Assembly: GCF_000284115.1 (NCBI RefSeq)
Contig: NC_017080.1
Coordinates: 3,690,001-3,722,000, forward strand
Length of the DNA stretch: 32,000 nt
Reading direction: 5' to 3'
From: Phycisphaera mikurensis NBRC 102666
GTDB lineage: Bacteria > Planctomycetota > Phycisphaerae > Phycisphaerales > Phycisphaeraceae
Both the position numbers and the translations under genes were made by a program. Under the pieces are notes generated by a model. It made no database searches and was not told where the DNA came from. It was given only the letters and a program-made list of their open reading frames with translations. This document shows, piece by piece, positions 12,454-31,404 of the stretch; the stretch's first letter is position 1; every line of letters starts with the position of its first letter.

Positions 12454-12466
12454 CCTCCCCCTGCCC

Positions 12467-12492
12467 GCCGAGCCGCCCGACGGCGGCCCGGC
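12467..12492 (+). terminator. Candidate stem-loop just after the stop codon (10 of 11 positions paired, 4-nt loop)
   Basis: gccgagccgcc-cgac-ggcggcccggc followed by ggcttgg. The U-tract is weak. Confidence 0.35.
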
Positions 12493-12552
12493 GGCTTGGT
12501 CGCGGCGGATCGTTTCCCGCTGCGCCGATCCTCGCCACCTTCGGAGTTTGCC

Positions 12553-13116: not shown

Positions 13117-13158
13117 GCCGCCTGAGTCGCCGAATGATCTGATTGGAGGAGGAAGCCT

Positions 13159-13192
13159 CCGCCGCCGGCCCCCGCGGACCGTCGGCGGTTTT
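13159..13192 (+). terminator. Rho-independent-like terminator (GC stem followed by TTTT)
   Basis: ccgccgccgg...ccgtcggcgg followed by tttt (13189..13192). It overlaps the CCGCGGACCG palindromic element at 13172..13217. Confidence 0.5.
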
Positions 13193-13217
13193 CGCTTGGG
13201 CGCCCCGCGGTCCGCGG
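13172..13217. repeat. Palindromic element: CCGCGGACCG - 26 nt - CGGTCCGCGG
   Basis: Left arm 13172..13181, right arm 13208..13217, 26-nt loop. It lies 3' of the small PEP-CTERM gene. Confidence 0.7.
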
Positions 13218-13318
13218 CGCCGCTCACCGGGCCCGCCGGCACCGGGGCCCGAAGCGGTAGCGTCGGGAGCCGCACCGGCTCCGCCGCCGGGCGGATCCAC
13301 GCCCCCTCCCGCCACGCC

Positions 13319-14467
13319 ATGAGCAACCCCTCCCCCCACCGCGTCGGCCTCGGCGTCATCGGCCTCGGCGGCTTCGCCCGCTTCTCGCTGCAGCACTTCG
13401 TGCAGGCCCCCGGCGTGGAGCTGGTCGCTGCCGGCGGCGTCACCAGCGACGAGGCCCGCCACGCCGCGGCCCGCTACGGCATCCCGGTGCTGGAGAGCAA
13501 TGACGAGCTCTGCGCCCACCCCGGCATCGACTGGGTCTACATCAACACCCCGCCCTTCCTGCACTTCGAGCACGCGATGCTCGCGCTGCGGGCGGGCAAG
13601 CACGTCCTCATCGAGAAGCCGCTCGCCACCGAGATCGGTCACGCCGAGGCCCTGATGGTGGAGGCCGACGAGCGGGGCCTCCGCCTCGTCACCAACCTCA
13701 TGCAGCGCTACAACCCGCTGCTGGAGACCCTCGGCACGGTCCTGCGCGAGGGCCTGCTCGGCGCGCCGCTGTTCTTCAACCTCACCAACCACGCCGTGGA
13801 CCAGGGCCTGCCCTCCGGGCACTGGTTCTGGGACCGCGACAAGAGCGGCGGCATCTTCGTCGAGCACGGCGTGCACTTCTTCGACATGGCCACGATGCTG
13901 CTCGGCCCCGGCCGCATCGACTCCGCCGGCAGCGCCCGCCGCGCGAGCGACGGCGCCGAAGACCAGGTCTGGTGCGACGGCCGCTTCGGTTCCGCCATCG
14001 CCCGCTTCTACCACGGCTTCAACCAGACCGCCGCCACCGAAGCCCAACGCTTCGAGATCGTCTGCGAGCGCGGGCAGATCACGATGGAGGGCTGGATCCC
14101 ACTCGCCGCCACCATCACCGCCACCGTCGATCTCGCCGCCACCCGCCGCCTCACCGAGCTCGCCCCCGCGGCCCGCCTCCGCGTGCTCGAGCAGTTCCCG
14201 CCGGACCGCCAGGAGGTTCGCGGCCACGGCCGGATGCATCGCGTCGACCAGTCGATCCGCCTGGACGTCCCGCCCGCCAGCCCCAAGAGCGAGCTCTACG
14301 GCGAGCTGCTCCAGCGCCTCTTCACCGAGCAGACCGCACCCGACGCCGCCTCGAACTCCAACTCCCTCCGCCTGCAACCCGACGACGGCCTGGAGAGCCT
14401 CCGCCTCGCCATCGCCGCCCGCGACCTGGCCGATGCTGCGGACGCGGCCGACCCGCCGGAGGATTGA
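13319..14467 (+). CDS. Gfo/Idh/MocA family NAD(P)-dependent oxidoreductase
   Basis: Internal ATG of track ORF 12986..14467: MSNPSPHRVGLGVIGLGGFARFSLQHF... (Rossmann GxGxxG/A). It also has ...AGKHVLIEKPLA (the family EKP motif). Confidence 0.85.
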   Translation: MSNPSPHRVGLGVIGLGGFARFSLQHFVQAPGVELVAAGGVTSDEARHAAARYGIPVLESNDELCAHPGIDWVYINTPPFLHFEHAMLALRAGKHVLIEKPLATEIGHAEALMVEADERGLRLVTNLMQRYNPLLETLGTVLREGLLGAPLFFNLTNHAVDQGLPSGHWFWDRDKSGGIFVEHGVHFFDMATMLLGPGRIDSAGSARRASDGAEDQVWCDGRFGSAIARFYHGFNQTAATEAQRFEIVCERGQITMEGWIPLAATITATVDLAATRRLTELAPAARLRVLEQFPPDRQEVRGHGRMHRVDQSIRLDVPPASPKSELYGELLQRLFTEQTAPDAASNSNSLRLQPDDGLESLRLAIAARDLADAADAADPPED

Positions 14468-14526
14468 GCCGGCAGGCGACTCCGCGGGCGCTCCGCCCTC
14501 CCCCGCCGCCCCCGTACCTTCTGCGG

Positions 14527-17298: not shown

Positions 17299-17335
17299 GA
17301 CGATCCGGGGCCGACCCGGCGACACGGAGACACCG

Positions 17336-18385
17336 ATGAGTTACTACGGGTACCAGCACTTCGCCCCCGCCCCCACCGTGGCCCAGCTGCGGGCCAAGGG
17401 CGAGAGAGCCTGCGCCAAGCTGCGCAAGACGAACCCGGGCATCGAGCCGGTCCACATCGAGGGCCGCACGATCGCGCGGACCTTCTGGGGCCGAGCCTGG
17501 TGCGACAACCTGGAGGCCTACCGCGACTTCGCCTACCGGCTGGAGCGCGGCCGCAAGTACGTGCGGCATCGCTGCGTCGTCGACCTGTCGATCCGCGGCG
17601 GCCGGGTGGGCGCGGTGGTGCAGGGCAGCTCGCTCTACGACGTCCGCGTGGAGGTCGAGCCGCTGCCCGAGGCCCGCTGGACCCAGCTCAAGGGCGCCAC
17701 GGTCGGGCAGATTGGCTCCGCGATCGACCTGTTGAAGGGCGAGCTCTCCGACGCGGTGATCCAGCGGCTGATCGACCTGGACACCGGCCTGTTCCCCGCC
17801 CCCGCGGAGATCCGCATGTCCTGCAGCTGCCCCGACGGCGCCGGCTGCTGCAAGCACGTCGCCGCCGCGCTGTACGGCGTCGGCCACCGCCTGGACACCA
17901 AGCCCGACCTGCTGTTCGTGCTGCGCAACCTCGACCCCGCCGAGCTCATCGCCCACGCCGCCTCCGCCGACGCCCTCACCGGCGGCAGCGGCCCGGGCTC
18001 CGCCGCCGAGCTCGCCGGCGAAGACCTCGACGACATCTTCGGCCTCTCCCTCGGCCAGGAGGAAAAGGACTCGGCTCCGTCGGCAAAAAGAAAGCCCGCG
18101 ACCGAGGCTCCCGCGAAGAAGAAGACGAAGAAGAAGCCCGCCGCCATGAAGGCCGCCAGGAAGAAGCCGGCCGCCGCGGCGAAGGCCGCCAAAAAGAAGC
18201 CATCCCCGAAGAAGAAGCCCTTGGCGAAGAAGTATCCCGGGAAGAGTTCCGAGCCCGCACCGCCCGTTCGCAAGAAGGCAACGAAGAAAGCGGCGGCGAC
18301 TAAATCCACCGCGAAGAAACCGACTACGAAGAAGAAAGCCGCTCCGAAGAAGGCCGTCAAGAGGTCCAGCACGCCGAGATGCTGA
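17336..18385 (+). CDS. SWIM zinc-finger protein (YwqB-like SNF2 partner) with a C-terminal Lys/Ala/Pro-rich histone-H1-like tail
   Basis: Track ORF, 349 aa, with SD-like ggaga 6 nt upstream. The SWIM CxCxnCxH motif is MSCSCPDGAGCCKHVAAALYGVGHRL. The last ~100 aa read KRKPATEAPAKKKTKKKPAAMKAARKKPAAAAKAAKKKPSPKKKPLAKK...KKATKKAAATKSTAKKPTTKKKAAPKKAVKR. Confidence 0.9.
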   Translation: MSYYGYQHFAPAPTVAQLRAKGERACAKLRKTNPGIEPVHIEGRTIARTFWGRAWCDNLEAYRDFAYRLERGRKYVRHRCVVDLSIRGGRVGAVVQGSSLYDVRVEVEPLPEARWTQLKGATVGQIGSAIDLLKGELSDAVIQRLIDLDTGLFPAPAEIRMSCSCPDGAGCCKHVAAALYGVGHRLDTKPDLLFVLRNLDPAELIAHAASADALTGGSGPGSAAELAGEDLDDIFGLSLGQEEKDSAPSAKRKPATEAPAKKKTKKKPAAMKAARKKPAAAAKAAKKKPSPKKKPLAKKYPGKSSEPAPPVRKKATKKAAATKSTAKKPTTKKKAAPKKAVKRSSTPRC

Positions 18386-18400
18386 CCTCCCACCGGGCCC

Positions 18401-18446
18401 CCGCGGACCGTCGGCCTCCAGGCCACCCAATCGTTCCGGTCCGCGA
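18401..18446. repeat. Palindromic element: (C)CGCGGACCG - 26 nt - CGGTCCGCG
   Basis: Arms at 18402..18410 and 18437..18445 with a 26-nt loop. It starts 16 nt after the SWIM gene stop. It shares a 20-nt identical stretch (ggcccccgcggaccgtcggc) with the copy at 13168..13187. Confidence 0.65.
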
Positions 18447-18516
18447 CTTCCCCCGGCGTAGGCGAGCGCCTGCTTGAGGCCAGTGTCGAAGGCCGTGATT
18501 CTGGCAGACTCCGCAC

Positions 18517-20217
18517 ATGCAACAACCGGAGCCGCAAAGCCGCAACCTCGACAGCTTCCTGCACGAGATCGACAAGGGCGCGATCAAGATCCCGCTCTTC
18601 CAGCGCGACTTCGTGTGGGAGCGAGCGAAGTCGGCGGCGTTGCTCGACAGCGTCCTGAAGGGGTACCCGGTGGGTACGTTCATCCTCTGGAAGACGAAGG
18701 AGCGGATGCGGAGCGTCCGGGACATCGGCGGGGTGCCGCTCCCCGAGCTCCCCGAGGGGGAAACTGTTGAGCAGGTGCTCGACGGGCAGCAGCGGCTGAC
18801 GAGCCTGTACGCCGCCGTCAAGGGGCTCAGCATCCAGCGGGGGAAGCGGGTCGACGACTTCGGTGAGATCGTTCTTGACCTCGATGCAGATCCCGATGGC
18901 ATCCAACCGCTGGTCCTCCCAAGGGTCCCGGCGAGCGATGAGCAAGATGAGACGCCCGACGCCGACCGGTACGCTCCCGTCGCCTCGCTGCAAGACAAGA
19001 AGCTGTTTGCCTTGCTCGGCAGCCTCGACCCCGCCCGGAGCGAACGCTTGCTGATGCTCCGGGACCGCCTGAGCAAGTATCGCTTTTCGATGATCATCGT
19101 CGGCGAGGCGCCGCTTTCCACGGCCACCGAGATCTTCACGCGGATCAACGTGACCGGCAAAGCATTGACCGTCTTCGAGATCATGGCGGCGAAGACGTAC
19201 AACGAGAAGACCGGGTTCGATCTTGCCGAGCGGTTCGACAGGTTCCGCGAAGACCTCGATGGTGTCGGCTACGGATTGATCTCGGGCGTGTCGATGCTGC
19301 AACTGACCTCGTTGCTGCTCACTGAGCATGGATCGGCGACGCGAGAGGACATCCTCAACCTCCCGCCGGCTGGGTTCCCCGCGGCGTGGGAGCGAGCGGT
19401 GTCGGCGGCGGAGGCGGCGGTCGATCACTTCCGACAGGTGATGCGGGTTCCCGTTTCTCGTCTACTGCCCTACGGATCGCTGATCGTCCCCTTTGGATTC
19501 TTCTTCGCACACCACCCCGCCAACGCCAACGGCCACGAACGCAAGGCGCTCGAAGAGTTCTTTTTCCGCGTAGCCCTCACCGGCCGCTACACCTCCGCGG
19601 TCGAGACGAAGCTGGCCTCTGATGCGCGGATCATCGCGATGATTGCCCGCGGCGAAGAGCCTGCCTTCGACAGGACCTTCGCCGCGGAAACCTCTGCGGC
19701 CTCGATCGAGCGTCGCGGTACCTTCCGCACCAGCGGCAGCTACGTCAAGGCGTTGCTCGCCGTGCTGGCGGCTCAAGGCCCCCGCTCCTTCTCGAACGAC
19801 GCGGCAGTCACGCTCGGCAACGACTGGTTGAAGCAGGCGAACAGCCGCAACTACCACCACTTCTTTCCAAAGGCTTTCCTGACAAAGCAGGGTGTCGCAA
19901 GAGAGCGAGCAAACCACACGGCGAACATCACACTCGTCGATGACTTTCTTAACAAGCGGGTCATCCGCGCCCAGCCTCCGTCGGAATATCTCCCCCGATT
20001 CCGGGAGGAGAACCCAGACCTCGACGCCACGTTGCGTTCTCACCTGATTGAGCCAGGGCCAGAATTGTCGACCGACGATTATGGAAGATTCTTCCGACGC
20101 CGCTGCGAGCGGCTGTCAAAAGAGCTGGCCATGAGGGTGCCAAGGCGGTCCATCGACGACGGCTTGAGCGGGCCGCGAGACGCGGACGATGTCGATCCGG
20201 AAGATGCGGACGCGTGA
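18517..20217 (+). CDS. DUF262 (ParB-like nuclease superfamily, GmrSD N-terminal type) protein with a His-rich C-terminal putative nuclease region
   Basis: Track ORF, 566 aa. The N-terminus is FLHEIDKGAIKIPLFQRDFVWERAKSAALLDSVLKGYPVGTFILW...LDGQQRLTSLY, carrying the DUF262 hallmark DGQQR. The C-terminus has NYHHFFPKAFL...NHTANITLVDDFLNKR, which is reminiscent of DUF1524/His-Me finger (inference). Codons end in A/T visibly more often than in neighbouring genes. Confidence 0.85.
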   Translation: MQQPEPQSRNLDSFLHEIDKGAIKIPLFQRDFVWERAKSAALLDSVLKGYPVGTFILWKTKERMRSVRDIGGVPLPELPEGETVEQVLDGQQRLTSLYAAVKGLSIQRGKRVDDFGEIVLDLDADPDGIQPLVLPRVPASDEQDETPDADRYAPVASLQDKKLFALLGSLDPARSERLLMLRDRLSKYRFSMIIVGEAPLSTATEIFTRINVTGKALTVFEIMAAKTYNEKTGFDLAERFDRFREDLDGVGYGLISGVSMLQLTSLLLTEHGSATREDILNLPPAGFPAAWERAVSAAEAAVDHFRQVMRVPVSRLLPYGSLIVPFGFFFAHHPANANGHERKALEEFFFRVALTGRYTSAVETKLASDARIIAMIARGEEPAFDRTFAAETSAASIERRGTFRTSGSYVKALLAVLAAQGPRSFSNDAAVTLGNDWLKQANSRNYHHFFPKAFLTKQGVARERANHTANITLVDDFLNKRVIRAQPPSEYLPRFREENPDLDATLRSHLIEPGPELSTDDYGRFFRRRCERLSKELAMRVPRRSIDDGLSGPRDADDVDPEDADA

Positions 20218-21298
20218 GCCTGCGCTCGCTCGTCGCCTGCTCCGCTTCATCGGCAGAGTAGAGCGGCGGGACCATGTCCCGCCAATTGCCTCGACTTCGG
20301 GGCAGGTTCGGAAGAGGCAGCGGAGCGGGACGCCCCCGGTGCCCAGGATGCGGCGGGGCCACGTCGCACAAATCCCACTGCTCCTCCGTGAGGCCGGTCA
20401 GGTCGCCGAGCTCTGTCCAGCCCATCGATGCGAACCCTCCCGCCTTCCACTGCGGCCAGACGCGGGCGCCCTCACCGGGCGCGATCTTCCAGATCCGAGC
20501 CGACTCCAGGCCCGTCGCCTCCTTCTGCCAGAGCGGCGCGATCTGCGGGTCGCAAAACTCAAAACCTCGCCCGTGCTCATGCTCCAGCCTCGCCCGGATC
20601 TTGCGCAGCGTCGCGTCAACGTTTCCGGGCACCCGCTCTTCCGGCTCCGCAAGTGCCGCTTCGATGGCTTGCTTGTGACCATCGGATGCGATCAACTCAA
20701 ACGCCCCCGGGAACATCAAATGCAGCAGGTGATTCCGCATCGACTGCGCCGCCTGCACGTCGATGGCGTCGAGGAAGGTCCGCCAGGCGTCCGGACCCCC
20801 GAGCAGCTCGGCCCGTCGCTCGGAGTCGAGTTGCTTGAAGGCGATCGCCGCCTCCAGGAGAAAGCGCAGCTGCCAGTAGCGGTGCTGGTGCAGCGACTGC
20901 CCGGGGTTGCGGCACGCGATCGTGACCGACGCCGCAATCTCCTGCGGCACCTCCACCGCCGGACGCCGCGCCGCAAGGATCCTTTCCACCTGCTCCAGAA
21001 TGGTCTCAGGCTTGATGACCTTCTCGTTCGCACCCAGCGTCTGCACGAACTGCATCTCCGCCATCAGGTCGACCACGCCCGCCGGCTCGCCCTCCAGCTG
21101 GTTCGCCAGCTTCGTCCAGCAGTCGTCCTCCCCCTCGTCCGCTCCGCCCACGTACGCCGCGTGCAGCCGCTGGAGGTTCTCCAGCGTCCACACCGCCTCA
21201 CCCGGGTGGAACAGGCTCCCGTCCCCCGCGAAGCAGTCCTCGCGGAGCCGCTCGGCGAATTGGTAGAACCGCCCATCGACTCGCTCGTGGATCGCCAT
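19961..21298 (-). CDS. Hypothetical protein resembling N-terminal modules of McrB/COG1401-type restriction ATPases; probably truncated or decayed (no AAA+ domain, and its 3' tail overlaps the DUF262 gene)
   Basis: Internal ATG at 21298 of track ORF 19961..21373 (MAIHERVDGRFYQFAERL...). The motifs NHLLHLMFPGAFELIASDGHKQAI and ARIWKIAPGEGARVWPQWKAGGFASMGWTELGDLTGL recall N-terminal regions of McrB-like proteins; this is from memory, not a search. After about nt 20360 the translation becomes low-complexity (PPHPGHRGRPAPLPLP...). It then runs 257 nt into the convergent gene. Confidence 0.45.
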   Translation of the reverse strand: MAIHERVDGRFYQFAERLREDCFAGDGSLFHPGEAVWTLENLQRLHAAYVGGADEGEDDCWTKLANQLEGEPAGVVDLMAEMQFVQTLGANEKVIKPETILEQVERILAARRPAVEVPQEIAASVTIACRNPGQSLHQHRYWQLRFLLEAAIAFKQLDSERRAELLGGPDAWRTFLDAIDVQAAQSMRNHLLHLMFPGAFELIASDGHKQAIEAALAEPEERVPGNVDATLRKIRARLEHEHGRGFEFCDPQIAPLWQKEATGLESARIWKIAPGEGARVWPQWKAGGFASMGWTELGDLTGLTEEQWDLCDVAPPHPGHRGRPAPLPLPNLPRSRGNWRDMVPPLYSADEAEQATSERRLTRPHLPDRHRPRLAARSSRRRWTALAPSWPALLTAARSGVGRIFHNRRSTILALAQSGENATWRRGLGSPPGIGGDIPTEAGRG

Positions 21299-21879
21299 CC
21301 GCGGATTGTTGCAGAAACAGGAGCACCCAATCGCAACCTTGGCGCGGCCGCGGGCAGCCTCCCGCCGACGCACCGCCAGCCTTGCGGGATCGCCAACCCA
21401 GGGCCGGCGGTCATCCCCGCAACTTCAGCCTCGCTTCCGCCAACGCCGCGGCACCAAGCGGCGTGCCCCACCCCGCTTCGCGACGCGGTCCGCTGGATCT
21501 GAGCACCGATGCACGCGGCTCATTGGCTCTGCCGCCGGCCGTGCACGAAGTGGGAAGGCTGCGAGGGCCAGTTCTCCACAGACTCCGGGATCGAGAGTAT
21601 CGCCCGCGGCGACCCCTTGTTCCTCAGGGTGCGCGGCGACGCGGCGATCGACCGCGAGGCGATCGCCGAGGCCGGGCAGCGTGCGCGTGGAGGAGCGGCC
21701 CGGCGTGAAGGCGCTCCGAGACCTGCCCGAGGGCCCGATGCTCGCCGGCCCGCCGCCGGCTACCTCCAAGATTAGATGGGCCTGGGCCTCGCCCGCTCCG
21801 CCCTGGACCGCCTCGACACCGATGGCTCCGCCACCCCGGCCGGGGCCTGAGCGGAGCCGCCGACCTCGACGCACCACGG

Positions 21880-22796
21880 AGGCTGGGCCCGCGCAGCGGA
21901 CGCGTCCGCATCTCCGAGAACCGCTCGGGCTCCGCCCGACCTACACCGCCGGTGGCGGTGGGCCACCTCGGCCTCCGGCCGGCAGACGGCGCGGGCCGCC
22001 AAGCCGCACGCTCAGCGCGAAGCCGCGGACCCTGGGAGCCCGGGCCCAGGCCCGCAGGTGGCTCACCGCCCCCGGCGGTGTAGAGCCCGCGCAGCCGACA
22101 CGCCCGCACCGCCAAGAACCGCTCGGGCTCCGCCCGACCTACACCGCCGGAGGCGGTGAGCCACCTCGGCCTCCGGCCGGCAGACGAAGCGGGCCGCCAA
22201 GCCGCACGCTCAGCGCGAAGCCGGGGACCGCGGGGGCCCAGGCCCGCAGGACCGCAGGTGGCTCACCGCCCCCGGCGGTGTGGGGTCCACGCAGCGGACG
22301 CGTCGGCATCTCCGAAAGACCGCTCGGGCTCCGCCCGACCTACACCGCCGGTGGCGGTGAGCCACCTCGGCCCCCGGCCGGCAGACGAAGCGGGCCGCCA
22401 AGCCGCGCGCTCAGCGAGAAGCCGGGGACCGACGAGGAAAAGGCCGCGGCCCGTAAGGACTCCAGGCCCGCAGGTGGCTCACCGCCCCCGGCGGTGTAGA
22501 GCCCGCGCAGCCGACACGCCCGCACCTCCAAGAACCGCTCGGGCTCCGCCCGACCTACACCGCCGGTGGCGGTGGGCCACCTCGGCCTCCGGCCGGCAGA
22601 CGGGGTGGGCCGCCAAGCCGCGTGCTCAGTGCGAAGCCGGAAACCGCGGGGGCCCGGGCCCGCAGGCCCGCAGGTGGCTCACCGCCTCCGGCGGTGTGGG
22701 GTCCACGCAGCGGACGCACCCGCACCGCCAAGAACCGCTCGGGCTCCGCCCGACCCACACCGCCGGAGGCGGTGAGCCACCTTGGCCTCCGGCCGG
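21880..22796. repeat. Tandem array of ~200-bp units (4 complete plus 1 partial), each carrying a 27-nt inverted repeat that can form a long hairpin
   Basis: The left arm ggtggctcaccgcc(c/t)ccggcggtgt(a/g)g occurs at 22057, 22257, 22473 and 22673, giving periods of 200, 216 and 200. The right arm ctacaccgccgg(t/a)ggcggtg(g/a)gccacc occurs at 21941, 22139, 22340 and about 22556 and 22755. Loops are ~55 nt and come in two alternating variants. The periods are not multiples of 3. Confidence 0.85.
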
Positions 22797-22982
22797 CGCG
22801 TGGGGACCTCTCCGGGGGGGCGGGAGGTTCCGTCGGGGTTCGCCTGAAAATCTGGAATCTCGCCCGAAAGGCGGCTTCGCCCGGTCGGAGCGGGCCGCAC
22901 CTCCTTAGGTTCTTCGCTCCGGGGTTGGAACCGAGGAGGGGTCTCTTCCTGGTCGCGGCCCGCACTCCCAAGGAGGTTCCGG

Positions 22983-23885
22983 ATGAGACGCAGGCACACG
23001 TTCGCGGGCTCGGCGTCGGCGGCGCTGCTGGCGGTGGCGGCGGGCGGGGCGGCCTCCGCGGCGGTCGTTCCCGCGTTCGATCTCGTCGACGACTTCCTCA
23101 AGGTCGGCGGCAACTACAACGGGCCGGGCCTCTACGACGTCTTCGACGCGGCGACCGGCTTGGCCGTCGCGGACGGCGTGGCGGACATCGCGGTGTCGGT
23201 CACCGCCACCGGGCTCACCGCCGACGACGGCAACAACGTGTCCTGGGTCGCGACGACGGGGACCAGCGGGACCGGGCTGGTCTCGACGATCGATCCGAGC
23301 TTCGTCTCCGGCGGCGGGGTCCTCGCCAACAACGGCGGGCACCGCGTGACGCAGACGATCCAGATCGACTTCCTCACGCTTCTCGTGGAGGCGAGCGACG
23401 TCACCGACCTCAGCTGGTCCAGCGGCAACAGCGCGGGCGTGGTGTGGGAGCACTCCGTGATGGAGTTCCTCGACGCCGGCGGGAACCCCTTCAGCCCGAC
23501 GCCCGCGATCGGGTCCTACGCGACGCACACGCCGGTCGAAGGCTCGGCGTCCGCCGGCAACTACGTCGCCGACGGCCTCGGCAGCGTCACGGCGGTGGGG
23601 ACCGACCTCACGGTGCCGGGCTCCAACGGGAGCATGGACGCGATCACCGGGTCCGAGCCCGACACCCCGGCCGCGACCGGCGTCGCGCCGGCGACGACGC
23701 TCATCGGCGGGATCCGCTTCACCCACGGCGTCGAAGACGTGCGCGGCGTGGACAACGGGGACACCGTCTTCACGAACACGATCAACGACCTCGACCTCGT
23801 GGACTTCGAGGTGGTCCCCGAGCCCGCCTCGGCCCTGCTGCTCGCCACCGGAGCCCTGCTGATTCTCACCGGCCGCCGGAACTGA
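22983..23885 (+). CDS. PEP-CTERM-anchored secreted protein
   Basis: Track ORF, 300 aa, with a strong SD (aaggagg) 7 nt upstream. The signal peptide is MRRRHTFAGSASAALLAVAAGGAASAA. The C-terminal VVPEPASALLLATGALLILTGRRN is a PEP-CTERM signal. Confidence 0.9.
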   Translation: MRRRHTFAGSASAALLAVAAGGAASAAVVPAFDLVDDFLKVGGNYNGPGLYDVFDAATGLAVADGVADIAVSVTATGLTADDGNNVSWVATTGTSGTGLVSTIDPSFVSGGGVLANNGGHRVTQTIQIDFLTLLVEASDVTDLSWSSGNSAGVVWEHSVMEFLDAGGNPFSPTPAIGSYATHTPVEGSASAGNYVADGLGSVTAVGTDLTVPGSNGSMDAITGSEPDTPAATGVAPATTLIGGIRFTHGVEDVRGVDNGDTVFTNTINDLDLVDFEVVPEPASALLLATGALLILTGRRN

Positions 23886-23947
23886 TCGCGGCGGCGGGGC
23901 CGCGGATCGGCGGGCGGCGGCATCAGCGGCCCGCGGGAGAGGCGAGA

Positions 23948-24757
23948 TCAGTTGCTCGCCTGCGCAGCGGCGTTCAGCGCGGTGTCCAGCGCGTCGAGCA
24001 CCTCCGCCGCGATGCTCGGGATCTTCTCCGCCATCGAGCGGTCCTCGCCGCCGCCGTCGCCGCCGCCCGCGTCCTCCAGCAGGCCGATGTCCTCGGTGTC
24101 GGTGTCCTCCTCGGGCACGCTCACGGCGAAGACGCCGCCCTGCTGCGTGGTCGGGTGGATCAGCGCCTCCACCTGCTCCGCGAGGCGGTCGGCGTTGAAG
24201 ATCGCCCGGGCCGCGTCCTCGCCGGGGGCCTGCTTCCGATAGACGTGCGCCTGCAGGAGGTTCGCCGCCGCCGAGTCGAGGCTGTACGCGAACATCGACT
24301 CGTCGCCGCGCTCCAGCCCGGCACGGGCCTCGGCAAGCTGCACGCGGGCGATGCCCAAGGTCACCGCAGCCCCGGGGCCGGAGAGATCGTCGGGGTTCAC
24401 GCGGGTGCGGTTCTGCACCTCCTGCGTGAAGCGGCTGAGCTCCGCCGCCGCCGCCCGCAACTCCTCGCCCCCGCCCGAGGACGCGGCCGCACCGAGGATC
24501 TCCGCCAGGCTCACCGCCAGCCGCAACTCCTTCACGGCCTCCTCCGGGTCCCGGTACAGCGCGTCGTACGCCGCTGACAGCTTCACCCGCACCTCGTTGC
24601 TGAACCCCCACGTGCTGGCCCGCTTGATCTCGACCCGCTCCGTGTCCCGCTGCGGCTCGGAGCCCCCGGACCGGTCCTGCGACAAAGCGGTTGGAGCCGC
24701 GAGCGAGAGAGCGGCGGCGAGGGAGGCGAGCGAGGCGCGAGGGGCGAGGCGGTGCAT
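23948..24757 (-). CDS. Secreted Ala/Glu-rich helical protein of unknown function with an acidic C-terminal stretch
   Basis: Internal ATG at 24757 of track ORF 23948..24991, with ggaga upstream. The signal peptide is MHRLAPRASLASLAAALSLAAPTALSQD. The acidic region is EEDTDTEDIGLLEDAGGGDGGGED. Confidence 0.7.
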   Translation of the reverse strand: MHRLAPRASLASLAAALSLAAPTALSQDRSGGSEPQRDTERVEIKRASTWGFSNEVRVKLSAAYDALYRDPEEAVKELRLAVSLAEILGAAASSGGGEELRAAAAELSRFTQEVQNRTRVNPDDLSGPGAAVTLGIARVQLAEARAGLERGDESMFAYSLDSAAANLLQAHVYRKQAPGEDAARAIFNADRLAEQVEALIHPTTQQGGVFAVSVPEEDTDTEDIGLLEDAGGGDGGGEDRSMAEKIPSIAAEVLDALDTALNAAAQASN

Positions 24758-24827
24758 GGGAGTCTCCGGGTGGGTGGTTCCGTGCTTGTCCTCGAGGTGT
24801 AGGCCGCAGCCAGGACCCAAACCAGAA

Positions 24828-24875
24828 CCCGCGGACCGAGACCGATTCCCACCCGAGAGCGTCACGGTCCGCGGG
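24828..24875. repeat. Palindromic element: CCCGCGGACCG - 26 nt - CGGTCCGCGGG
   Basis: Arms at 24828..24838 and 24865..24875 (11 bp) with a 26-nt loop. It lies about 70 nt upstream of the start of the minus-strand secreted-protein gene. Confidence 0.65.
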
Positions 24876-25446
24876 CTCCCGTCGCACCAACCCCCCAGAG
24901 CCGAGCCCGCTCGCCCGGCCCAGCGGAGCCCGGCGGCAGAATAGACCTCGACCTCCAGAGACCAACCCCCCCGCACCCCCGACCCCCACAACGGGGAAAG
25001 TCGGCTCCTCCAAGTCCGAAGGGAGGCAGCCCGATGAACGGCTCGGCGGGACGTGGCCCCGCAGAATCCGCGGCAACGTCTTCGCCCGCCTCACCTCCCT
25101 CCGCCGCGGCGACCTCGAACGCGCGGTGCGGCCCGCGCCCGAGAACGACGCCCAACGCCGCTTCGTCCTCGCCGGCGGGTGAGGTGCCCGAGTTCTGTGT
25201 TCCGTAGCGTCGGAGCAGAGCGATGGGGACCGTCAGAGCCACACCCCGCCACACCTGCCAAGCGGACGCGAGTTCAGCAAATCCATCAGCCGGATCGGCT
25301 CCCGCCTGAGCCCCTCGATGACGGAGCGTGGTGCTCCACGCGACGGGCAGCCCGGCGGCAAGCGGCCTCCCAGAATCCCGCTTCATCCTCATTCTCGTCT
25401 GATGCAGTAACTGCCACCCGTGGCGTTCGAGCTGGTGGACATCGGG

Positions 25447-28400
25447 TCACACATCCGGCTCCCAACGCCCACCGCGCCTGCGGAACGTCGCGAAGCGGCC
25501 TGCAAGCTCAAATGTCTTGCTGTCGTCGGGCCGGATGAGCAAGCCGATGAAGCCTATTCTTTTGAGACCCAATAGCGCCCGCGTCTCCAGCCGGAGTGCT
25601 TGAGCCTTGGATGGTCCTGCGAGCCGGCTTGCCGCCACGGGTACACCCACGGTGCCAGCGTGGTGTTTCTCCACCCAGGGGATGGCGTTGGCCGCGTCTT
25701 TGCCCCGCTCCGGCTCATTCATGAAGGTCAGGAAGGCGCGGCAGCAGCCGCTTGAGTCCAGCTGCCGGAGGCTCATGACGACGCCGGTCAGCCGGTCCTC
25801 TCCAAGCTCCTCGTGAGGCAGCACCTCGCCGCTCCACGAACAGGTCGCGACCTCGTCCGGGTGGAAAGTCCGGCCTCTGGTGGCGCGGGCGGCCGCGCCA
25901 GGAAGCATCCGCCGCCCGCTCTGCTCGCTGGTGGCCATTTCGGAAGGCATCGCCTTCCTGCCGGTGCAGACGCAGGCTTCGAGCTCATTGGGGAGCGCGT
26001 GCTGCCCCGTGACCGCGCAGGGCACGAGTAGCCGGGTCCGGGCGAGCTTGCCTGAAGCCTCGGATGCCGATGCAACATCCCGTGCGATGCGGTCGCCGAG
26101 GACGGCGCAGGTGACAAGCTCGTCGGGCAACACCTGCCGCCCGGACTCCCCGCAAGTTTCCAGCTCGCCAACGAGTGCGGGACGACCCTGTAGACCCGAG
26201 GGCACCAGAAGCGACCGGAGGGCTCGCTTGCCGCTCGCCGCGCACGTCGCCAAAAGATCAACTCGAACACGGCGGCCGGTCGATTCGCACGCCTGCAGGA
26301 AACGCGGGAGCACGAGGTCGCCGCTCTCCTCGCACGGCTCTAGCTCCGCGGGAGGCACCCGCTCGCCGGACCGTGCGCATGCGCGCAGCAGGCTCGGGCG
26401 GACGCGTCGCCCACCGGAAATCTCCACCAACTCTTCGGGGAGCACCCGCTCTCCGGAGAGGTCGCAGCGGCGGAGGCACTCCGGCAGGACGCGCTGCCCG
26501 GTGACGGCACAGGCCTCCAGCTCCGTAGCGAGAACCCGCCGGCCGCTCATGCCGCAGGCGGCGACGTGTTCCGGCAAGGCGGTGCGGCCCTCGTTGAGGA
26601 CCTCCAGGCGGCTAGGCAAGACCCTCTTGCCGGAGGCGCAGCAGGTGCCCAGCTGTCCCGGCGCCACGGCCTGCCCCGTCACCTCACAAGCCTCCAGCTC
26701 CCCAAGCGGAATCGGTTCCTGGGTGACCTCGCAGCGACCCAGCAGGTCCGGGAGGGCGTGCCGCCCGAGCGTCGTCGCCTGCAAAGTCTCCGGAAGCACC
26801 CGCTTGCCGGAAAGGTCGCAGGCTTTGAGCAAGCTCGGGAGCACCAGACGTCCGGTGACGGCGCAAGCTTCGAGTTCGGAAGCGACCACGCGGTCCCCGC
26901 TCTCTTCGCAGGTCGCCGCGTGCTCTGGCAAAACCACTCGATCGTCGGAAAGCGTCTCCAAGCAGGCGTGGACCACCCGCTTGCCCGAGACGCAGCACGT
27001 CTCCAGCTGTTCCGGTGCCACCGCCTGCTCGGTCACTGCGCAAGTCTCCAACTCGTCAAGCGGCACCCGGGCGCCGGTGATAGCGCAGGAACCGAGCAGG
27101 TCCGGGCAGGCATGTCTGCCGCCGGAGGTGCCCTCAAGAAGTTCGGCAAGGACCCGCTCCCCGGAGACGTCGCACGCCCGCAAGAGGCGGGGGTGGACCT
27201 GCTTCCCCGTGATGGCGCAGGCTTTGAGTTCGGCCTCGGGAACCCGCTCGCCCGAGATGGCACAGGCGGAAACGAGCGCGGGCGGGAACCGCCGGCCATC
27301 GGTCACCGTCTCCAGAGCTTCGGCGAGAGCCCGTTCACCGGGCGCGTCGCTTTCTACGAGCAGGTCCGGGGCCACCCGCTTCCCGGTGACGGCGCACGCC
27401 ACCAGTTCACTGGCGGGGAAGCGCCGCCCTGAGGCCTCGCAAGCCTCCAGGTGCTCCGGCAGCGCCAGCCGCCCGTCTCCCAGCGTCACCAGTTCGTCAA
27501 GGAGCACCCGGTCGCCGCTGACGCAGCAGGTGCCCAGCAGCCCGGGGGTCACGAGCCGCCCGGTGCGAGCACAGGCGATGAGCGTCCCGGGGATCACCCG
27601 CTCGCCGCTGACGGCACAGACCGCGGCGGCTTCGGGTCGCACGCGTTCTCCGGTGCCAAGCTTGACAAGTTCGCTGCTGAGCACGCGATCGCCGGTGATG
27701 GCACAGGCTTGCAACAGCTTCGGCCGCACCCGCTTCCCGCTGGCTGCGCAAACCAGCAGGCTCCCGAGCTTCACGCGGTCGCCGCTCGCTTCGCAGGTTT
27801 CGAGGAAGGCTGGGTCCACGAAGCCCCCGCGGTGAGACTCCATCTCCGTCCGGAGGCTCCGCTTTCCGCTGATTCGGCACTTCTCCGTCAGGCTCTTCTC
27901 CACCACCGCACCGGTGATGGCGCAGTCAACGGTCAGTTCTGGGAGGAGCCGCTTCCCGCTGGAGTCACAAGTCAACAGCGATCCAGGGCCAGCCCGCTTC
28001 CCGCTGACCTCGCAGGATTCAGCAAGGTGCTCAGCGATCGGAAGCCCCGTCACGGCGCAGTCGAACAACTCCGACCGGTGGCCGGTGGCGGCGGAGGCGG
28101 AGCAGGTCGCGCCTTCGTCCTCCCGGTACCGCTTCTGGGAGATCTCACTCACCGCCAACCAGGCGGGCAGGACATGGTCGCCCGTGAAGTCGCACGGCTC
28201 AAGCTCCTCCTCGAGGGCGGCGTCGCCGGAGACGGCGCACGTGGCCGTCAAGCTTGTCTCTGCCCAACGGCCATCGGCCAGGTGAGTCATCTCTTCGAAC
28301 AGGAGCGTGCGGTCGGTGACGCAGCACGACCCGACGTGCTCCGGCTTGGCGGCACGCTTCGACAGGTCCGACACCTTCAGCAGGTGCTGGAGCACCGACT

Positions 28401-31128
28401 GCTGATCTACCTCGCAGCGGCCGAGGAACGCGACCGGCGTGCTGCGGCCGCTCAGGTGGCACACCCCGAGCTTGGGCTTGACCTTGAGGGAACCACCGGG
28501 CAGGCAAACGCGGAAAGGGAGCGTCCGGCGTGACACGCCATCCACCTCGACATCGATCTTCACCCCCACCTCGCCGTAGCGCAAGCCCTCGAAGCCGACG
28601 ACCTCCGCCCGAAGCTTCGGTTCGAAGTCCGCTTCGAGCCGCGCCCGGCCGTGCGCCCCGTCGGCGCCCGTGAGCGACGCCGCGAGGCGCTGACCGTAGT
28701 GGCTGATGAAGGCTTCCACGCCGGGGTCCGCGGCCGCGGCACGACCGAGCGTTGCGGCGTCGGCGCCGCACTCGTCGGCCGACATTCGCTCGTCCATGAA
28801 CGGGAGCGTGTCCAGTTCCTCGCCGGCGGGGAAACTGGGGCTGTCCCCGACCGACGCTTCGACGAGCGTCTCCAGGCGGTCCACGCCGTTGAAGGCCTCC
28901 ACCCGCATCGTGACCCGGCCGTGGACCTGCGGGCGTCGGTCCAGCACCTCCACCGCTTCGACGGCGTACCCGTCACCGCACTCCGCCACCAGCCAGGCGT
29001 CGACAGCCGCCCGCACCGCCGCCTCCGGCGTCCGCAGAGCGTCAGCGGTGAGGTGACCGCCCTCGACGATCAGCCGTTCCATCGTTCGCACAAAGCCGGG
29101 GCGGCCGGGCCGATGGTCCTGCTCCCCGATCAGGGTCCGGCTGCCACGATCTCCAAAGTGGAGGTGCGTCCCCCGCCCCGAAGGCCCGACCGTCCGGTAC
29201 AGCCGAGCCCGCGGGTCGAAGTCCACCTCGTGCCCGAAGGCGCGGTAGGCGGCAAGGACCAGCTCCTCGGAATCCATCGTCGGCTCCACCTTTTCAAACT
29301 TGGGTGGTCGAGGCTGGTCGTCCTCGAGGTTCCCGGTGCCGAGGATGTCGTCCTTCCCGCTCACGACTTCGGCATAGATCTTCTTGGCCCGCTCCTGGCT
29401 CTCGAATTCTCTTCTGAAAGCCTCCGTTTGGTCGCTTTGGCGGAGCGAGCCCATCACGATCTCGCCGATCCGCTTCTCGAAACCCTCTCCATCCGGGTCG
29501 CCGTTGAAGTCGAGGATTGCCTCGATGTCGCCCAACGCTGCATTGACCCCCTCCAGCTTCAGGGTCAGCAGCTTGACCACCATCTCCTCGCTGGTTTCCT
29601 CCACCGCAAGGTTCACCACCTCCACCCGTTCGTATGTGGAGCCCATCCGCTGCACCCGCCCGATCCGCTGCTCCAGCACCATTGGGTTCCAGGGGAGGTC
29701 GAAGTTGAGGATGACGTTCCCGGCCTGCAGGTTGACGCCTTCCGCTCCGGAGTCGGTGGACACCAGAACGTGAATGGAGGGCGGCTTCCCCTCCTCCCCG
29801 GTGTAAGCCTCCACCGCCTTGGCATTGGCTTCCGGGGTACCCCCACGGATGAAGCCGTGCGACACCCCTCGCAGGCGCAGCATCCGACCGATCGCGTCCT
29901 GCGTCGCCACCCGCAGTGTGAACACCACCAGCCGCCAGTCCTCCGGCCGCTTGGCCGCGAGCTCATCCACCAACGCCAGAAGTCCCGCCATCTTGGAGGT
30001 CACCGGGTCGTTTTCGCACAGGTTGTAAGCTCGATCTTCCACCTGCTTCGTGGCCCAGTCGCCCTTGCTGTTGGCAACCTGCGTCGCGAGGGCGTGCGGG
30101 CTGCTCATCATCGCCCGGCAAAGCGACAGTGCTTCGAAGTAGGAGAGTGTCTCGCTGACCTCACGGACCAGCTTGATCATCTCCTTCTCCACCCGCCGCG
30201 GCTTGAGCGTCCGGCTCTCGATGTCGCGACTGGGGAAGTTCAGCTTCACGTCCACCCGCCGGGTCCGTCGGAGCGTCCTCCGCACCGCACCGTGGAATGC
30301 TTCTTCTTTGTCTGGACGCAGCCGCAAACCCCGCTGGCTCATGGCACCGTCGAGCAGGTACTCGAAACGGAAGTCGTCGATGTGCCCCAGCGGGTGCTGC
30401 CGTCCTTCCGCCGCGGCCGCGAGGTCGAGCAAGCTGTACAAGTCCGTGATCCGGTTCTGCATCGGCGTCGCCGTCAGCAGCAGCATGTGCGGAAAAAGCC
30501 GGTCCTTCAGCGCCTTCTGAATGTTCACCGCCATCTTCGGCGGCTTCGGCGTCCCGTGCAGGTTCCGGAGTTTGTGGGCCTCATCCAGAATGAGCATCTG
30601 GAACGCCCCCTCCGGGACGCTGCCGCGCTCGAGCACCCGGCTGATGGTGTGGTAGGTCGTCACCACCACCTCCGCCCGCTGGTTGCGGAGTTCGTATGTC
30701 AACTCAGAACCGGTGGCCGCGGTGGCCTTCAGCTTGAACTTCTTCCCGAGTTCCTCGACCCATTGCCTCTGGAGGATCTTCGGGCACACCACCAGCGTCC
30801 GCTGCACCCGCCCGCGAACCATCAGCTCACTGAGGATCATCCCGGCGCTGATCGTCTTTCCAAGCCCGACGTCATCCGCCAGCACCGCCACCGGCAGCCG
30901 CCGCAGCGACGCGATCAGATTCTCAACCTGGTGCTCGAAAGGATTCCAGTCCCGCTTCGGATCGTGGTACCAGCCGCCCTTGATGTCCTGCTCGCTGTGG
31001 AGCACGATCGGGTCCGCCAGCCCCCACTCAAGCGCCGCCCGCCGGAGCCGGTGCCATTGCCGCGACTCGCTCGCTTGGAGCACGGGCCGCTTCAGACTCA
31101 GTTCCGGCGGGGCGGATTGCAGGGCCAT
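25447..31128 (-). CDS. Giant SNF2-family ATPase (1,893 aa from ATG 31128; an alternative GTG start is at 31221) with a C-terminal array of 15-residue Cys-anchored repeats
   Basis: Track ORF 25447..31221. SNF2 motifs are LADDVGLGKT (I), MLILDEAHKLRN (II), LLLTATPMQNR (III), VLVSTDSGAEGVNLQAGNVILNFDLPWNPMVLEQRIGRVQRMGS (V-VI). Then come a ~280-aa unassigned region, a ~890-aa repeat array and a ~110-aa unique tail. Confidence 0.9.
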   Translation of the reverse strand: MALQSAPPELSLKRPVLQASESRQWHRLRRAALEWGLADPIVLHSEQDIKGGWYHDPKRDWNPFEHQVENLIASLRRLPVAVLADDVGLGKTISAGMILSELMVRGRVQRTLVVCPKILQRQWVEELGKKFKLKATAATGSELTYELRNQRAEVVVTTYHTISRVLERGSVPEGAFQMLILDEAHKLRNLHGTPKPPKMAVNIQKALKDRLFPHMLLLTATPMQNRITDLYSLLDLAAAAEGRQHPLGHIDDFRFEYLLDGAMSQRGLRLRPDKEEAFHGAVRRTLRRTRRVDVKLNFPSRDIESRTLKPRRVEKEMIKLVREVSETLSYFEALSLCRAMMSSPHALATQVANSKGDWATKQVEDRAYNLCENDPVTSKMAGLLALVDELAAKRPEDWRLVVFTLRVATQDAIGRMLRLRGVSHGFIRGGTPEANAKAVEAYTGEEGKPPSIHVLVSTDSGAEGVNLQAGNVILNFDLPWNPMVLEQRIGRVQRMGSTYERVEVVNLAVEETSEEMVVKLLTLKLEGVNAALGDIEAILDFNGDPDGEGFEKRIGEIVMGSLRQSDQTEAFRREFESQERAKKIYAEVVSGKDDILGTGNLEDDQPRPPKFEKVEPTMDSEELVLAAYRAFGHEVDFDPRARLYRTVGPSGRGTHLHFGDRGSRTLIGEQDHRPGRPGFVRTMERLIVEGGHLTADALRTPEAAVRAAVDAWLVAECGDGYAVEAVEVLDRRPQVHGRVTMRVEAFNGVDRLETLVEASVGDSPSFPAGEELDTLPFMDERMSADECGADAATLGRAAAADPGVEAFISHYGQRLAASLTGADGAHGRARLEADFEPKLRAEVVGFEGLRYGEVGVKIDVEVDGVSRRTLPFRVCLPGGSLKVKPKLGVCHLSGRSTPVAFLGRCEVDQQSVLQHLLKVSDLSKRAAKPEHVGSCCVTDRTLLFEEMTHLADGRWAETSLTATCAVSGDAALEEELEPCDFTGDHVLPAWLAVSEISQKRYREDEGATCSASAATGHRSELFDCAVTGLPIAEHLAESCEVSGKRAGPGSLLTCDSSGKRLLPELTVDCAITGAVVEKSLTEKCRISGKRSLRTEMESHRGGFVDPAFLETCEASGDRVKLGSLLVCAASGKRVRPKLLQACAITGDRVLSSELVKLGTGERVRPEAAAVCAVSGERVIPGTLIACARTGRLVTPGLLGTCCVSGDRVLLDELVTLGDGRLALPEHLEACEASGRRFPASELVACAVTGKRVAPDLLVESDAPGERALAEALETVTDGRRFPPALVSACAISGERVPEAELKACAITGKQVHPRLLRACDVSGERVLAELLEGTSGGRHACPDLLGSCAITGARVPLDELETCAVTEQAVAPEQLETCCVSGKRVVHACLETLSDDRVVLPEHAATCEESGDRVVASELEACAVTGRLVLPSLLKACDLSGKRVLPETLQATTLGRHALPDLLGRCEVTQEPIPLGELEACEVTGQAVAPGQLGTCCASGKRVLPSRLEVLNEGRTALPEHVAACGMSGRRVLATELEACAVTGQRVLPECLRRCDLSGERVLPEELVEISGGRRVRPSLLRACARSGERVPPAELEPCEESGDLVLPRFLQACESTGRRVRVDLLATCAASGKRALRSLLVPSGLQGRPALVGELETCGESGRQVLPDELVTCAVLGDRIARDVASASEASGKLARTRLLVPCAVTGQHALPNELEACVCTGRKAMPSEMATSEQSGRRMLPGAAARATRGRTFHPDEVATCSWSGEVLPHEELGEDRLTGVVMSLRQLDSSGCCRAFLTFMNEPERGKDAANAIPWVEKHHAGTVGVPVAASRLAGPSKAQALRLETRALLGLKRIGFIGLLIRPDDSKTFELAGRFATFRRRGGRWEPDV
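25790..28461 (-). repeat. Intragenic coding tandem repeat: 45-nt (15-aa) units with consensus C-x-[VI]-[ST]-G-x-R-V-L-P-x-x-L-x-x, organised in 59-aa and 118-aa higher-order periods
   Basis: I count 43 units starting with Cys, from CHLSGRSTPVAFLGR (Cys codon 28461..28459) to CSWSGEVLPHEEL (Cys codon 25842..25840). The 29-residue units each contain a Cys-less half unit. Segments 26734..27087 and 26380..26733 are two aligned 354-nt super-repeats. Confidence 0.85.
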
Positions 31129-31404
31129 GGAAACATTCTGCCATGACGCACCGAAGTCGCAGCGCGGTAAATCGCAATAGCAAAGCGGCTTTGGACACCC
31201 CGTTGTCCAGCCCACCGGCACCGGGTTTCCGCTGCCGGAACCATATTGTGCTGAGGCTACGTCCCGCCGCTTGCCCTCACCGCGTCGACCGCTTCCTCGC
31301 CGGCGCAGCGTGCCGCCTCCCGCTACGCGCCGCGGACGGTGCGCGGAAACGCCGCCAACCTTCGATGGTCCGCGACGTCCGGAGGAGCTTGCTGATCCCG
31401 GCGC

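Follow-up and report, generated by a model that had tools for sequence, protein, structure and literature searches.

A SNF2 ATPase with a long array of 15-residue knuckle-like repeats in Phycisphaera mikurensis, and its relatives as a candidate defence family

The described proteins that come closest to the gene reported here are the SNF2 ATPases of defence systems. HmaA of the Hma system is a Swi2/Snf2 helicase that carries a PD-(D/E)xK nuclease at its C-terminus and acts in phage defence (PMC11232893), for which it needs both motor and nuclease; ZorD of type I Zorya joins a SNF2 translocase to a Mrr-like nuclease; DrmD, BrxH and DpdE contain the best-scoring named motors, which match only in part. 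Here we describe a gene of Phycisphaera mikurensis NBRC 102666, found in a stretch of 32,000 nt (NC_017080.1, positions 3,690,001 to 3,722,000; the whole stretch is called the window in the following). Like HmaA, its product is a large SNF2 protein with a related motor, but HmaA has motor and nuclease in one chain and no rod, whereas the P. mikurensis protein has no nuclease domain and continues after the motor with ~900 aa of knuckle-like repeats (the rod).

The protein belongs to a rare, patchily distributed and unnamed family (SNF2/knuckle-rod family) with a conserved order of parts: an N-terminal segment, the SNF2 motor, an alpha/beta domain, an array of 15-residue units (C/S-x-x-[ST/C]-G) and a tail, and the family hidden Markov model (HMM) spans the whole query. 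We searched the literature for SNF2 proteins with Cys or zinc-ribbon repeats and found nothing that describes this family. As far as the searched libraries and literature go, the rod, the linker domain (i.e. the alpha/beta domain) and the tail are undescribed. Table 1 lists the features of the gene, of its surroundings and of the haloarchaeal split form.

Table 1. Features of the SNF2-rod gene, its surroundings in P. mikurensis and the haloarchaeal operon (positions refer to the window unless a locus is named; AF2, AlphaFold2)
Feature	Position (nt)	Strand	Residues or length	Remarks
Whole SNF2-rod gene, Met32 to stop codon	25447-31128	-	1893 aa	P. mikurensis WP_014438498.1
Conserved N-terminal segment ahead of the motor	30937-31098	-	aa 42-95	matched in 66/120 homologues (phmmer)
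SNF2 ATPase motor	29392-30936	-	aa 96-610	Pfam and motifs; E 4e-160 to family members
Family-specific alpha/beta domain (earlier 'linker')	28507-29391	-	aa 611-905, ~295 aa	AF2 prediction
Knuckle-hairpin array	25792-28506	-	aa 906-1810, 905 aa	~60 units of 15 residues, with 14-residue Cys-less variants
Two clearest 118-aa octets	26380-27087	-	aa 1379-1496, 1497-1614	units C, C, CC, Cys-less, C, C, C, Cys-less
C-terminal tail domain	25450-25791	-	aa 1811-1924	predicted two helices, then six-stranded beta meander (AF2); family-conserved
DUF262/GmrSD_N protein	18517-20217	+	566 aa	GmrSD_N 1.7e-26; PADLOC PDC-M55C 1.6e-54 over aa 4-459
Second, unrelated SNF2 gene	13972-17298	+		DUF3670 and SNF2-rel_dom (3.6e-59); PADLOC DpdE and ZorD models on motor at ~1e-113
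SWIM zinc-finger protein after second SNF2 gene	17336-18385	+
N6_N4 DNA methyltransferase	5434-7293	-	619 aa	methylase domain only aa 340-609
N6_N4_Mtase and ResIII helicase, type III-like Mod and Res pair	L005 894-5831		751 aa and 893 aa	~4 kb upstream of the SNF2-rod gene, beyond window end
Archaeal SNF2 protein			594 aa	family HMM E 5e-116
Archaeal rod protein (linker domain, array, tail)	L018 6702-10439	+	1245 aa	family HMM E 5e-55; linker HMM E 7e-7
Archaeal Mrr_cat restriction endonuclease				third operon gene; Mrr_cat 2.9e-6

Gene model and SNF2 motor

The open reading frame (ORF) of the gene covers 25447-31221 on the minus strand and has 1924 codons when counted from the GTG at 31221; residue numbers throughout this text are counted from that GTG and not from Met32. 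The real start codon is almost certainly Met32 (nt 31128), because the N-termini of the homologues align from about residue 42 and because a product of 1893 aa is on record. This identical product (WP_014438498.1 / BAM05294.1) is annotated merely as 'SNF2-related protein' or 'DEAD/DEAH box helicase'. The GC contents at the first, second and third codon positions (GC1, GC2 and GC3) are 0.71, 0.49 and 0.83, respectively, which is a coding-type composition. The GC3 of 0.83 compares to 0.91-0.99 in most flanking ORFs called by a GC3 filter, as expected from the original prediction (a model's reading of the bare sequence), which had noted a codon usage unlike that of host genes.

Both lobes of the motor are recognized by Pfam (SNF2-rel_dom with E-value 1.4e-26 and 93.7 bits, cutoff 24.9; Helicase_C with E-value 7.3e-15 and 55.6 bits, cutoff 23.5), and motifs I (GLGKT), II (DEAH), III (TATP), V (STDSGAEG) and VI (QRIGRVQR) are all present, so the motor is complete, as had been claimed. 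Judged by these sequence features, the protein qualifies as a member of the SNF2/Swi2 ATPase superfamily.

The top-scoring named relatives of the motor are the defence SNF2s DrmD, BrxH, HmaA, DpdE and ZorD (E-values 1e-58 for DrmD, 1.2e-50 for BrxHI and 7.7e-49 for DpdE), all of them motor-only matches far under the curated cutoffs. DrmD of DISARM was rejected as an identity, since NF038317 and NF038318 match partially with 199.5 and 183.4 bits (cutoffs 610 and 950); Pfam and PADLOC scans of the window ORFs detected neither an operon of drmA, drmB (DUF1998) and drmC or a methylase nor any brx or dpd genes. ZorD (NF041790) reaches 39.2 bits against a cutoff of 1500, and the protein has neither the nuclease domain nor zorABC neighbours; DpdE of Dpd (NF041062) reaches 166.5 bits against 500, with no dpd genes nearby; and RapA, also called HepA (NF003426), reaches 125.3 bits (E-value 2.6e-36) against 576. 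For HmaA, the PADLOC match (4.8e-42) is limited to aa 308-601 of the motor, and no Pfam nuclease family is found in the remainder. By score and by context, the P. mikurensis protein is a SNF2 superfamily member outside DrmD, ZorD, DpdE, RapA and HmaA. Its presumed mode of working is most like that of the SNF2-plus-nuclease defence enzymes.

The repeat array and its zinc-knuckle likeness

According to the unit HMM, the array has the consensus C-[AE]-[VI]-[ST]-G-x-R-V-[LP]-P-x-[EL]-L-x-[AT], which reproduces, as written, the consensus C-x-[VI]-[ST]-G-x-R-V-L-P-x-x-L-x-x of the original prediction. The array contains 52 Cys, and 27 of the successive Cys-Cys spacings are exactly 15 residues, as compared to a mean of 1.3 +/- 1.2 (maximum 9) in 5000 shuffles. 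Our recount gives 44 Cys-initiated units (43 had been counted), and the array length implies ~60 units in total (55-60 had been estimated), 48 of which are detected by the unit HMM. The span given earlier, 25790-28461 (aa 921-1811 from the GTG, or ~890-1780 from Met32), does hold the array, with limits that have to be shifted to those in Table 1.

Two properties that had been ascribed to the array did not stand. First, the period is not a strict one of 15 residues; it is hierarchical (15/59/118), with three 15-mers and one 14-residue Cys-less unit making up a quartet of 59 aa and two quartets making up an octet of 118 aa. BLOSUM self-similarity is strongest at lag 118 (0.90), followed by lags 59 (0.82) and 15 (0.54), as compared to -0.85 +/- 0.07 in shuffles. 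Second, the Cys is not invariant, since of the canonical units family-wide 57% have Cys and 32% have Ser at position 1; the P. mikurensis array is unusually rich in Cys (position 1 in 34 out of 40 canonical units). At the DNA level the copies of the array share just 60-72% identity, and Tandem Repeats Finder gives one weak 45-nt array, which rules out recent DNA slippage as the origin. Given this divergence and the coding composition of the frame, the array is an old protein repeat, neither a shadow ORF nor the product of recent slippage.

AF2 predicts the array to be ordered (predicted local distance difference test, pLDDT, of ~80-97 with mean 89.8) and not disordered; its predicted TM-score (pTM) is 0.48, a low value that would be expected of an elongated object. 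In the model, each unit begins with six residues of coil, the C-x-x-S/T-G-x knuckle. A strand of two residues (R-V) and a 3-10 turn (P-x-E) follow, and a strand of three residues (L-x-A) then leads into the next knuckle.

No described repeat family matches the array, in sequence or by Foldseek, among Pfam, NCBIfam, PADLOC and PDB, and the same libraries and PDB sequences hold no match for the linker domain or the tail. At E-values up to 1, Pfam and NCBIfam give no match of the whole protein to pentapeptide repeats, dockerins, Myxococcus Cys-rich repeats, or DZR and other zinc ribbons; only sub-threshold chance matches were seen (ETF_alpha, DUF2093 and CRAM_rpt). PF26196 is precomputed on three relatives (P0022, P0023 and P0035), and the Pfam scan did not reproduce it even at E-values up to 10; we found no mention of PF26196 in the searchable literature. 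Foldseek of the rod against PDB returned noise (megalin, LIM, PHD; TM < 0.11), the list including weak LIM/PHD/RBR fingers (E-values 0.5-2). Against BFVD, adenovirus fibre shafts come top (E-value 5.6e-10) and a phage LIM-domain protein follows with 9e-5, at TM-scores of only 0.07-0.2. The fibre shaft, a triple beta-spiral, resembles the rod in having a 15-residue repeat of two short strands plus turns. It differs in that the fibre is an obligate trimer without sequence similarity to the rod, and the two superpose with root-mean-square deviations of tens of angstroms. We rejected a fibre-type triple beta-spiral, as global superposition fails (TM 0.07-0.16) despite the low E-values; the matches to adenovirus fibres and LIM domains are local backbone resemblance only, and those to the fibres are no evidence of homology. 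The fibre-like 15-residue pattern nevertheless hints that the rod might form a trimer.

The two domains that flank the array are specific to the family as well. What had been taken for a mere linker of ~280 aa (aa 611-905) is predicted to be a folded domain with very long beta-hairpins (pLDDT 91.4, pTM 0.76). Foldseek against PDB finds no fold match for it (best E-value 0.05), and it is conserved in 87 of the 120 homologues compared by phmmer. The unique tail of ~110 aa noted earlier is present (~114 aa) and gives weak NTF2/CaMKII-hub-like Foldseek matches only (E-value ~1). A hidden nuclease in tail or linker was considered and rejected, since inspection of the consensus revealed no acidic residues conserved as a catalytic motif and Pfam gave no hit.

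The origin of the unit is suggested by a split form of the family in haloarchaea. Two haloarchaeal hits were obtained by tblastn of plasmids, on Haloferax lucentense pSVX82-3 and Halorhabdus tiamatea pHTIA, and both plasmids have an operon in the order SNF2, rod protein, Mrr_cat, with overlapping stops and starts (i.e. translationally coupled). The linker domain recurs at the N-terminus of the archaeal rod protein (Table 1). Its array has the same 15-residue period (32 exact spacings) with 146 Cys, and its unit, C1-x2-C4-G5-[ED]-x2-C9-[PET]-[DE]-[H/D]12-L-E-[TA], has a full ligand set. Bacterial and archaeal units are in register, with cyclic shift 0 scoring 7.9 (mean -14.3, sd 6.9) and remaining best when the Cys columns are left out. 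Some bacterial relatives (P0008, P0023 and P0045) are intermediates, in that their arrays start and finish with true CxxC...C..H units and otherwise have a single Cys per unit.

Known zinc-knuckle hairpins include the retroviral-type knuckles (C-x2-C-x4-H-x4-C) and the CxxCxGxG repeats of DnaJ. Like these knuckle or ribbon hairpins, the rod unit is a predicted beta-hairpin tipped by a C-x-x-[C/S/T]-G knuckle, with four ligands kept in the archaeal homologues; unlike them, it comes in dozens of contiguous copies at a fixed 15-residue period, the bacterial units are minus three ligands, and no sequence family matches. Because the bacterial unit is in register with the archaeal C-x2-C-G-x3-C-x2-[H/D] 15-mer, the bacterial repeat looks like a degenerate zinc-knuckle array in which three out of four ligands have been lost. 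In bacteria, positions 4, 9 and 12 would have been replaced by S/T, L/P and E/L, with position 1 staying Cys or Ser. In P. mikurensis these three positions are mostly S/T, L/P and E/L and Cys is found at position 1 only, so that the unit lacks the four metal ligands (Cys/His) per site that haloarchaeal sequences have. A small hydrophobic core may be formed by V8, P10 and L13, and a small residue would have been kept at position 1 to cap the turn. A few vestigial metal sites are possible in the P. mikurensis rod, e.g. CCVSGKRVVHAC at aa 1409-1420. The earlier remark that the motif is not a CxxC zinc ribbon is right for the P. mikurensis sequence and does not extend to the unit as such, given its register with the archaeal zinc knuckle.

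Family members, gene neighbourhoods and nuclease partners

When the C-terminal 1044 aa were used as query in a word-indexed search, 125 proteins of 1210-1826 aa were returned, nearly all with the full architecture. When 120 homologues were compared by segment with phmmer, the motor was matched in 115 and the tail in 14. HMMER was also run exhaustively over 1.84 billion cluster representatives with a two-octet query, and this gave 415 proteins (E <= 0.001). Of the 133 newly listed ones, 93 contain a SNF2 motor, and most of those without it are short and start within the linker or array, which is consistent with their being fragments. Nearly all relatives carry SNF2 along with the repeat, a co-occurrence that the original prediction had proposed to check. 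A scan of genome contigs, in which generic SNF2 motifs swamped the output, gave 7 loci only.

The family is spread over Planctomycetota, Nitrospirota, Elusimicrobia, Alphaproteobacteria, Paceibacterota, Eisenbacteria, Bacillota and Halobacteria. Arrays have ~13-17 units in forms of ~1230 aa and >60 in P. mikurensis and in proteins of ~2100 aa; gene spans of ~2560 and ~2217 codons at loci L042 and L054 suggest arrays longer than that of P. mikurensis. We note a protein (P0152; locus L020, 3829-6936, with unannotated flanking genes) in which the array follows an APH/RIO-type kinase-like head in place of SNF2; the array is therefore a portable module. In a Nitrospirota metagenome-assembled genome (L013, 132-2427), the family gene is present as two overlapping ORFs (132-1190 and 1159-2427), possibly due to a frameshift or a pseudogene.

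No gene is conserved beside the family across all loci examined, and the orthologues show no conserved housekeeping synteny. For the comparison of neighbours, forms <1300 aa were counted as short and those >=1300 aa as mid/long. In 23 out of 33 loci of short bacterial forms with adequate flanks (8 out of 13 groups at 85% identity), a DUF2779- or COG2251-type gene of ~500 aa is immediately adjacent, mostly 4-60 nt away. The two kinds of partner, DUF2779 (PF11074) and COG2251/PF13482, are related, and nuclease motifs are visible in their sequences; both are fusions of a Cas4-like PD-(D/E)xK nuclease with an RNase H-like 3'-5' exonuclease (PMC3985635, PMC13621843). For the 15 loci of mid/long forms, no alternative recurrent adjacent gene was found.

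On both haloarchaeal plasmids Mrr_cat is adjacent to the rod gene, and a PbeA-like helicase is divergently encoded beside the operon. The archaeal SNF2/Mrr pair resembles ZorD, and the archaeal Mrr weakly matches the nuclease part of ZorD (8.5e-5); unlike in ZorD, the archaeal nuclease is a separate gene, which is absent from the P. mikurensis window, and ZorD has no rod. No homologues of the archaeal Mrr, hypothetical protein or helicase were found in 17 bacterial loci. The PLSDB gene table of pSVX82-3 omits the 1245-aa Cys-rich ORF, inside which two probably spurious 'hypothetical protein' genes (8259-8660 and 8673-9155) are annotated on the opposite strand. Paralogous proteins of ~280 aa flank the archaeal operon (L018 3955-4791 on the minus and 11459-12352 on the plus strand; L019 2850-3698 on the minus and 10146-10829 on the plus strand) and have no Pfam or PADLOC match.

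Surroundings of defence or mobile type are frequent at other loci, and long forms in particular often lie among defence genes. Such neighbours include a type I restriction-modification (R-M) system, Abi_2 and GmrSD (L004), Bub-type genes (L017), an OLD-type gene together with SbcCD next to the family gene (L012), helicases and IS21 (L016), and Mrr, HNH and ScoMcrA (L022).

In P. mikurensis itself, one of two neighbours named in the original prediction was confirmed and the other was not. The DUF262 protein is present (Table 1; no C-terminal nuclease family by Pfam) and matches PDC-M55C, a PADLOC model for candidate defence genes. A McrB-like gene was not found: Pfam and PADLOC gave no hit to one, and all frames of 17300-25500 lack a Walker A motif. 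The pair made up of the second SNF2 gene and the SWIM gene lies 7 kb from the SNF2-rod gene. No cognate nuclease is recognized near the methyltransferase at 5434-7293, the N-terminal ~320 aa of which are without assignment. Overall GC is lower across ~18 kb to 31 kb of the window. At ~20200-22900 no frame has the strong GC3 of host genes (all three codon positions are at ~0.75-0.81 in ~21600-22800), and neither Pfam nor PADLOC recognizes any of its ORFs; this segment could be degraded or foreign DNA within the low-GC island. For the SNF2-rod gene, atypical GC3 and patchy phyletic spread are signs of horizontal acquisition. The ORF of 1843 aa at 7912-13443 on the minus strand (GC3 0.66) is a shadow ORF; real genes with GC3 of 0.94-0.98, including DUF1559-type and PEP-CTERM genes, are found opposite to it on the plus strand.

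Functional readings and significance

From the gene neighbourhoods, we favour reading the family as a restriction-like, SNF2-driven anti-invader (defence) module, a proposal whose chances of being right and of being wrong we see as balanced. The motor would load on DNA and translocate along double-stranded DNA, as its SNF2 family suggests, and an associated nuclease would cleave the DNA. To go by the operons, this nuclease may be Mrr in the archaeal version and, in the majority of short bacterial forms, the fusion of Cas4-like nuclease and RNase H-like exonuclease. Our guess is that the linker-rod-tail part targets or gates the motor as a portable recognition/scaffold module, and, as a further guess, the nuclease-less long form of P. 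mikurensis might act alone by translocation/stripping or borrow a nuclease encoded elsewhere in the island. A separable binding or scaffold module describes the rod better than a precise ruler does, because the module stays intact when the gene is split, is found on a kinase-like head and is highly variable in length. HmaA, in which SNF2 with a nuclease gives phage defence, is a precedent for this design (PMC11232893). The defence-type role suggested in the original prediction gains support from the nuclease partners of the relatives and from defence-island contexts; the suggested 'single-protein system' would apply to the long form only, as the short and archaeal forms are modules of two or three genes.

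Several observations weigh against a defence role. No adjacent DUF2779- or COG2251-type nuclease is found in any of the 15 mid/long loci (0/15) or in the P. mikurensis window; as the P. mikurensis protein and these 15 forms have no conserved nuclease neighbour, the hand-off to a nuclease is extrapolated from other subfamilies. Loci L003, L007, L009 and L014/L015 have housekeeping or other non-defence surroundings, and searches of INPHARED phages, of IMG/VR (with one pattern) and of plasmids (tblastn) turned up no relative on a phage or a bacterial plasmid. The association with defence islands was judged by eye over ~20 loci. Finally, DUF2779 is quasi-essential in the minimal Mycoplasma JCVI-syn3.0 (PMC13621843), which would also fit a role in repair.

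Such a role, as an accessory of DNA repair or recombination, is the strongest rival and, in our opinion, still rather improbable. The motor would remodel stalled forks or DNA ends, the Cas4-like/exonuclease partner would resect them, and the rod would tether the complex to repair or replication proteins. Besides the quasi-essential DUF2779, this could explain why the partner, with its PD-(D/E)xK and 3'-5' exonuclease parts, resembles end-processing nucleases (PMC3985635), why the family occurs in a small-genome member of the Paceibacterota (L010), why SbcCD adjoins it at one locus and why housekeeping genes surround it at several. It sits less well with a distribution as rare and patchy as 415 clusters in 1.8 billion proteins, with the atypical GC3, with varied neighbourhoods in which R-M, Abi, OLD, Bub and Mrr genes abound, and with an archaeal version that is plasmid-borne and encoded with a Mrr restriction nuclease and a PbeA-like helicase.

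We consider it unlikely that the family acts as a RapA/Mot1-like remodeller, whose rod would bind a protein such as RNA polymerase, a nucleoid protein or an invader protein and whose motor would strip it off DNA. Mot1 pairs a repeat array with a SNF2 motor too, long forms without a nuclease partner would need none, and portability of the array (the kinase-like head of P0152) is what a binding module would lead one to expect. The E-value of the motor against the RapA model (2.6e-36) points the same way, but the score stays at 125 bits where 576 are asked for; the neighbourhoods showed no conserved association with transcription genes, and where a nuclease is coupled to the family, as in archaea and in short forms, destruction of DNA is the more obvious purpose.

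More doubtful still is the Cys ladder proposed in the original prediction, in which one Cys per unit would be aligned to bind metal or to act as a redox switch on the motor. The 52 regularly spaced Cys in 905 aa, the full ligand sets of the archaeal homologues and the extra ligands retained in a few units, e.g. CCVSGKRVVHAC (aa 1409-1420), would suit it; we regard metal binding as very unlikely, because only one of four ligand positions is left (positions 4, 9 and 12 being mostly S/T, L/P and E/L) and because that one is Ser in about a third (32%) of the family units, and AF2 is confident on the array without metal. That the array is an artefact of a high-GC genome, i.e. a shadow ORF or translated DNA tandem repeat and no genuine protein domain, might be suspected in a window of 72% GC rich in long shadow ORFs (such as 7912-13443), and is already refuted by the coding composition of the frame (0.71/0.49/0.83), the 60-72% identity of the DNA copies, protein-level homologues across many phyla, low-GC ones included, and the confident AF2 model.

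Returning to the defence module, we tentatively propose, with more doubt than confidence, that the rod has an undescribed repeat fold of fibrous type, in which hairpins derived from zinc knuckles make up a tape that outlasted the loss of zinc. It would serve as the length-tunable recognition/scaffold arm of a new SNF2 defence family with three architectures (archaeal, split and with Mrr; short bacterial, with Cas4/exonuclease; long and stand-alone, the expanded rod replacing a dedicated nuclease partner). If this is true, nature would provide a series of one 15-residue unit, from full zinc ligands (haloarchaea) through mixed arrays (Eisenbacteria, Bacillota) to almost ligand-free ones (P. mikurensis), and thus a test case for how metal-dependent mini-folds turn metal-independent. 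A repeat/fibre type without counterpart in Pfam, NCBIfam or PDB is added to the catalogue of repeat proteins. The family would also be a candidate defence family with a SNF2 motor, interchangeable nucleases and an array of ~13 to >60 units, and its short two-gene form is directly testable.

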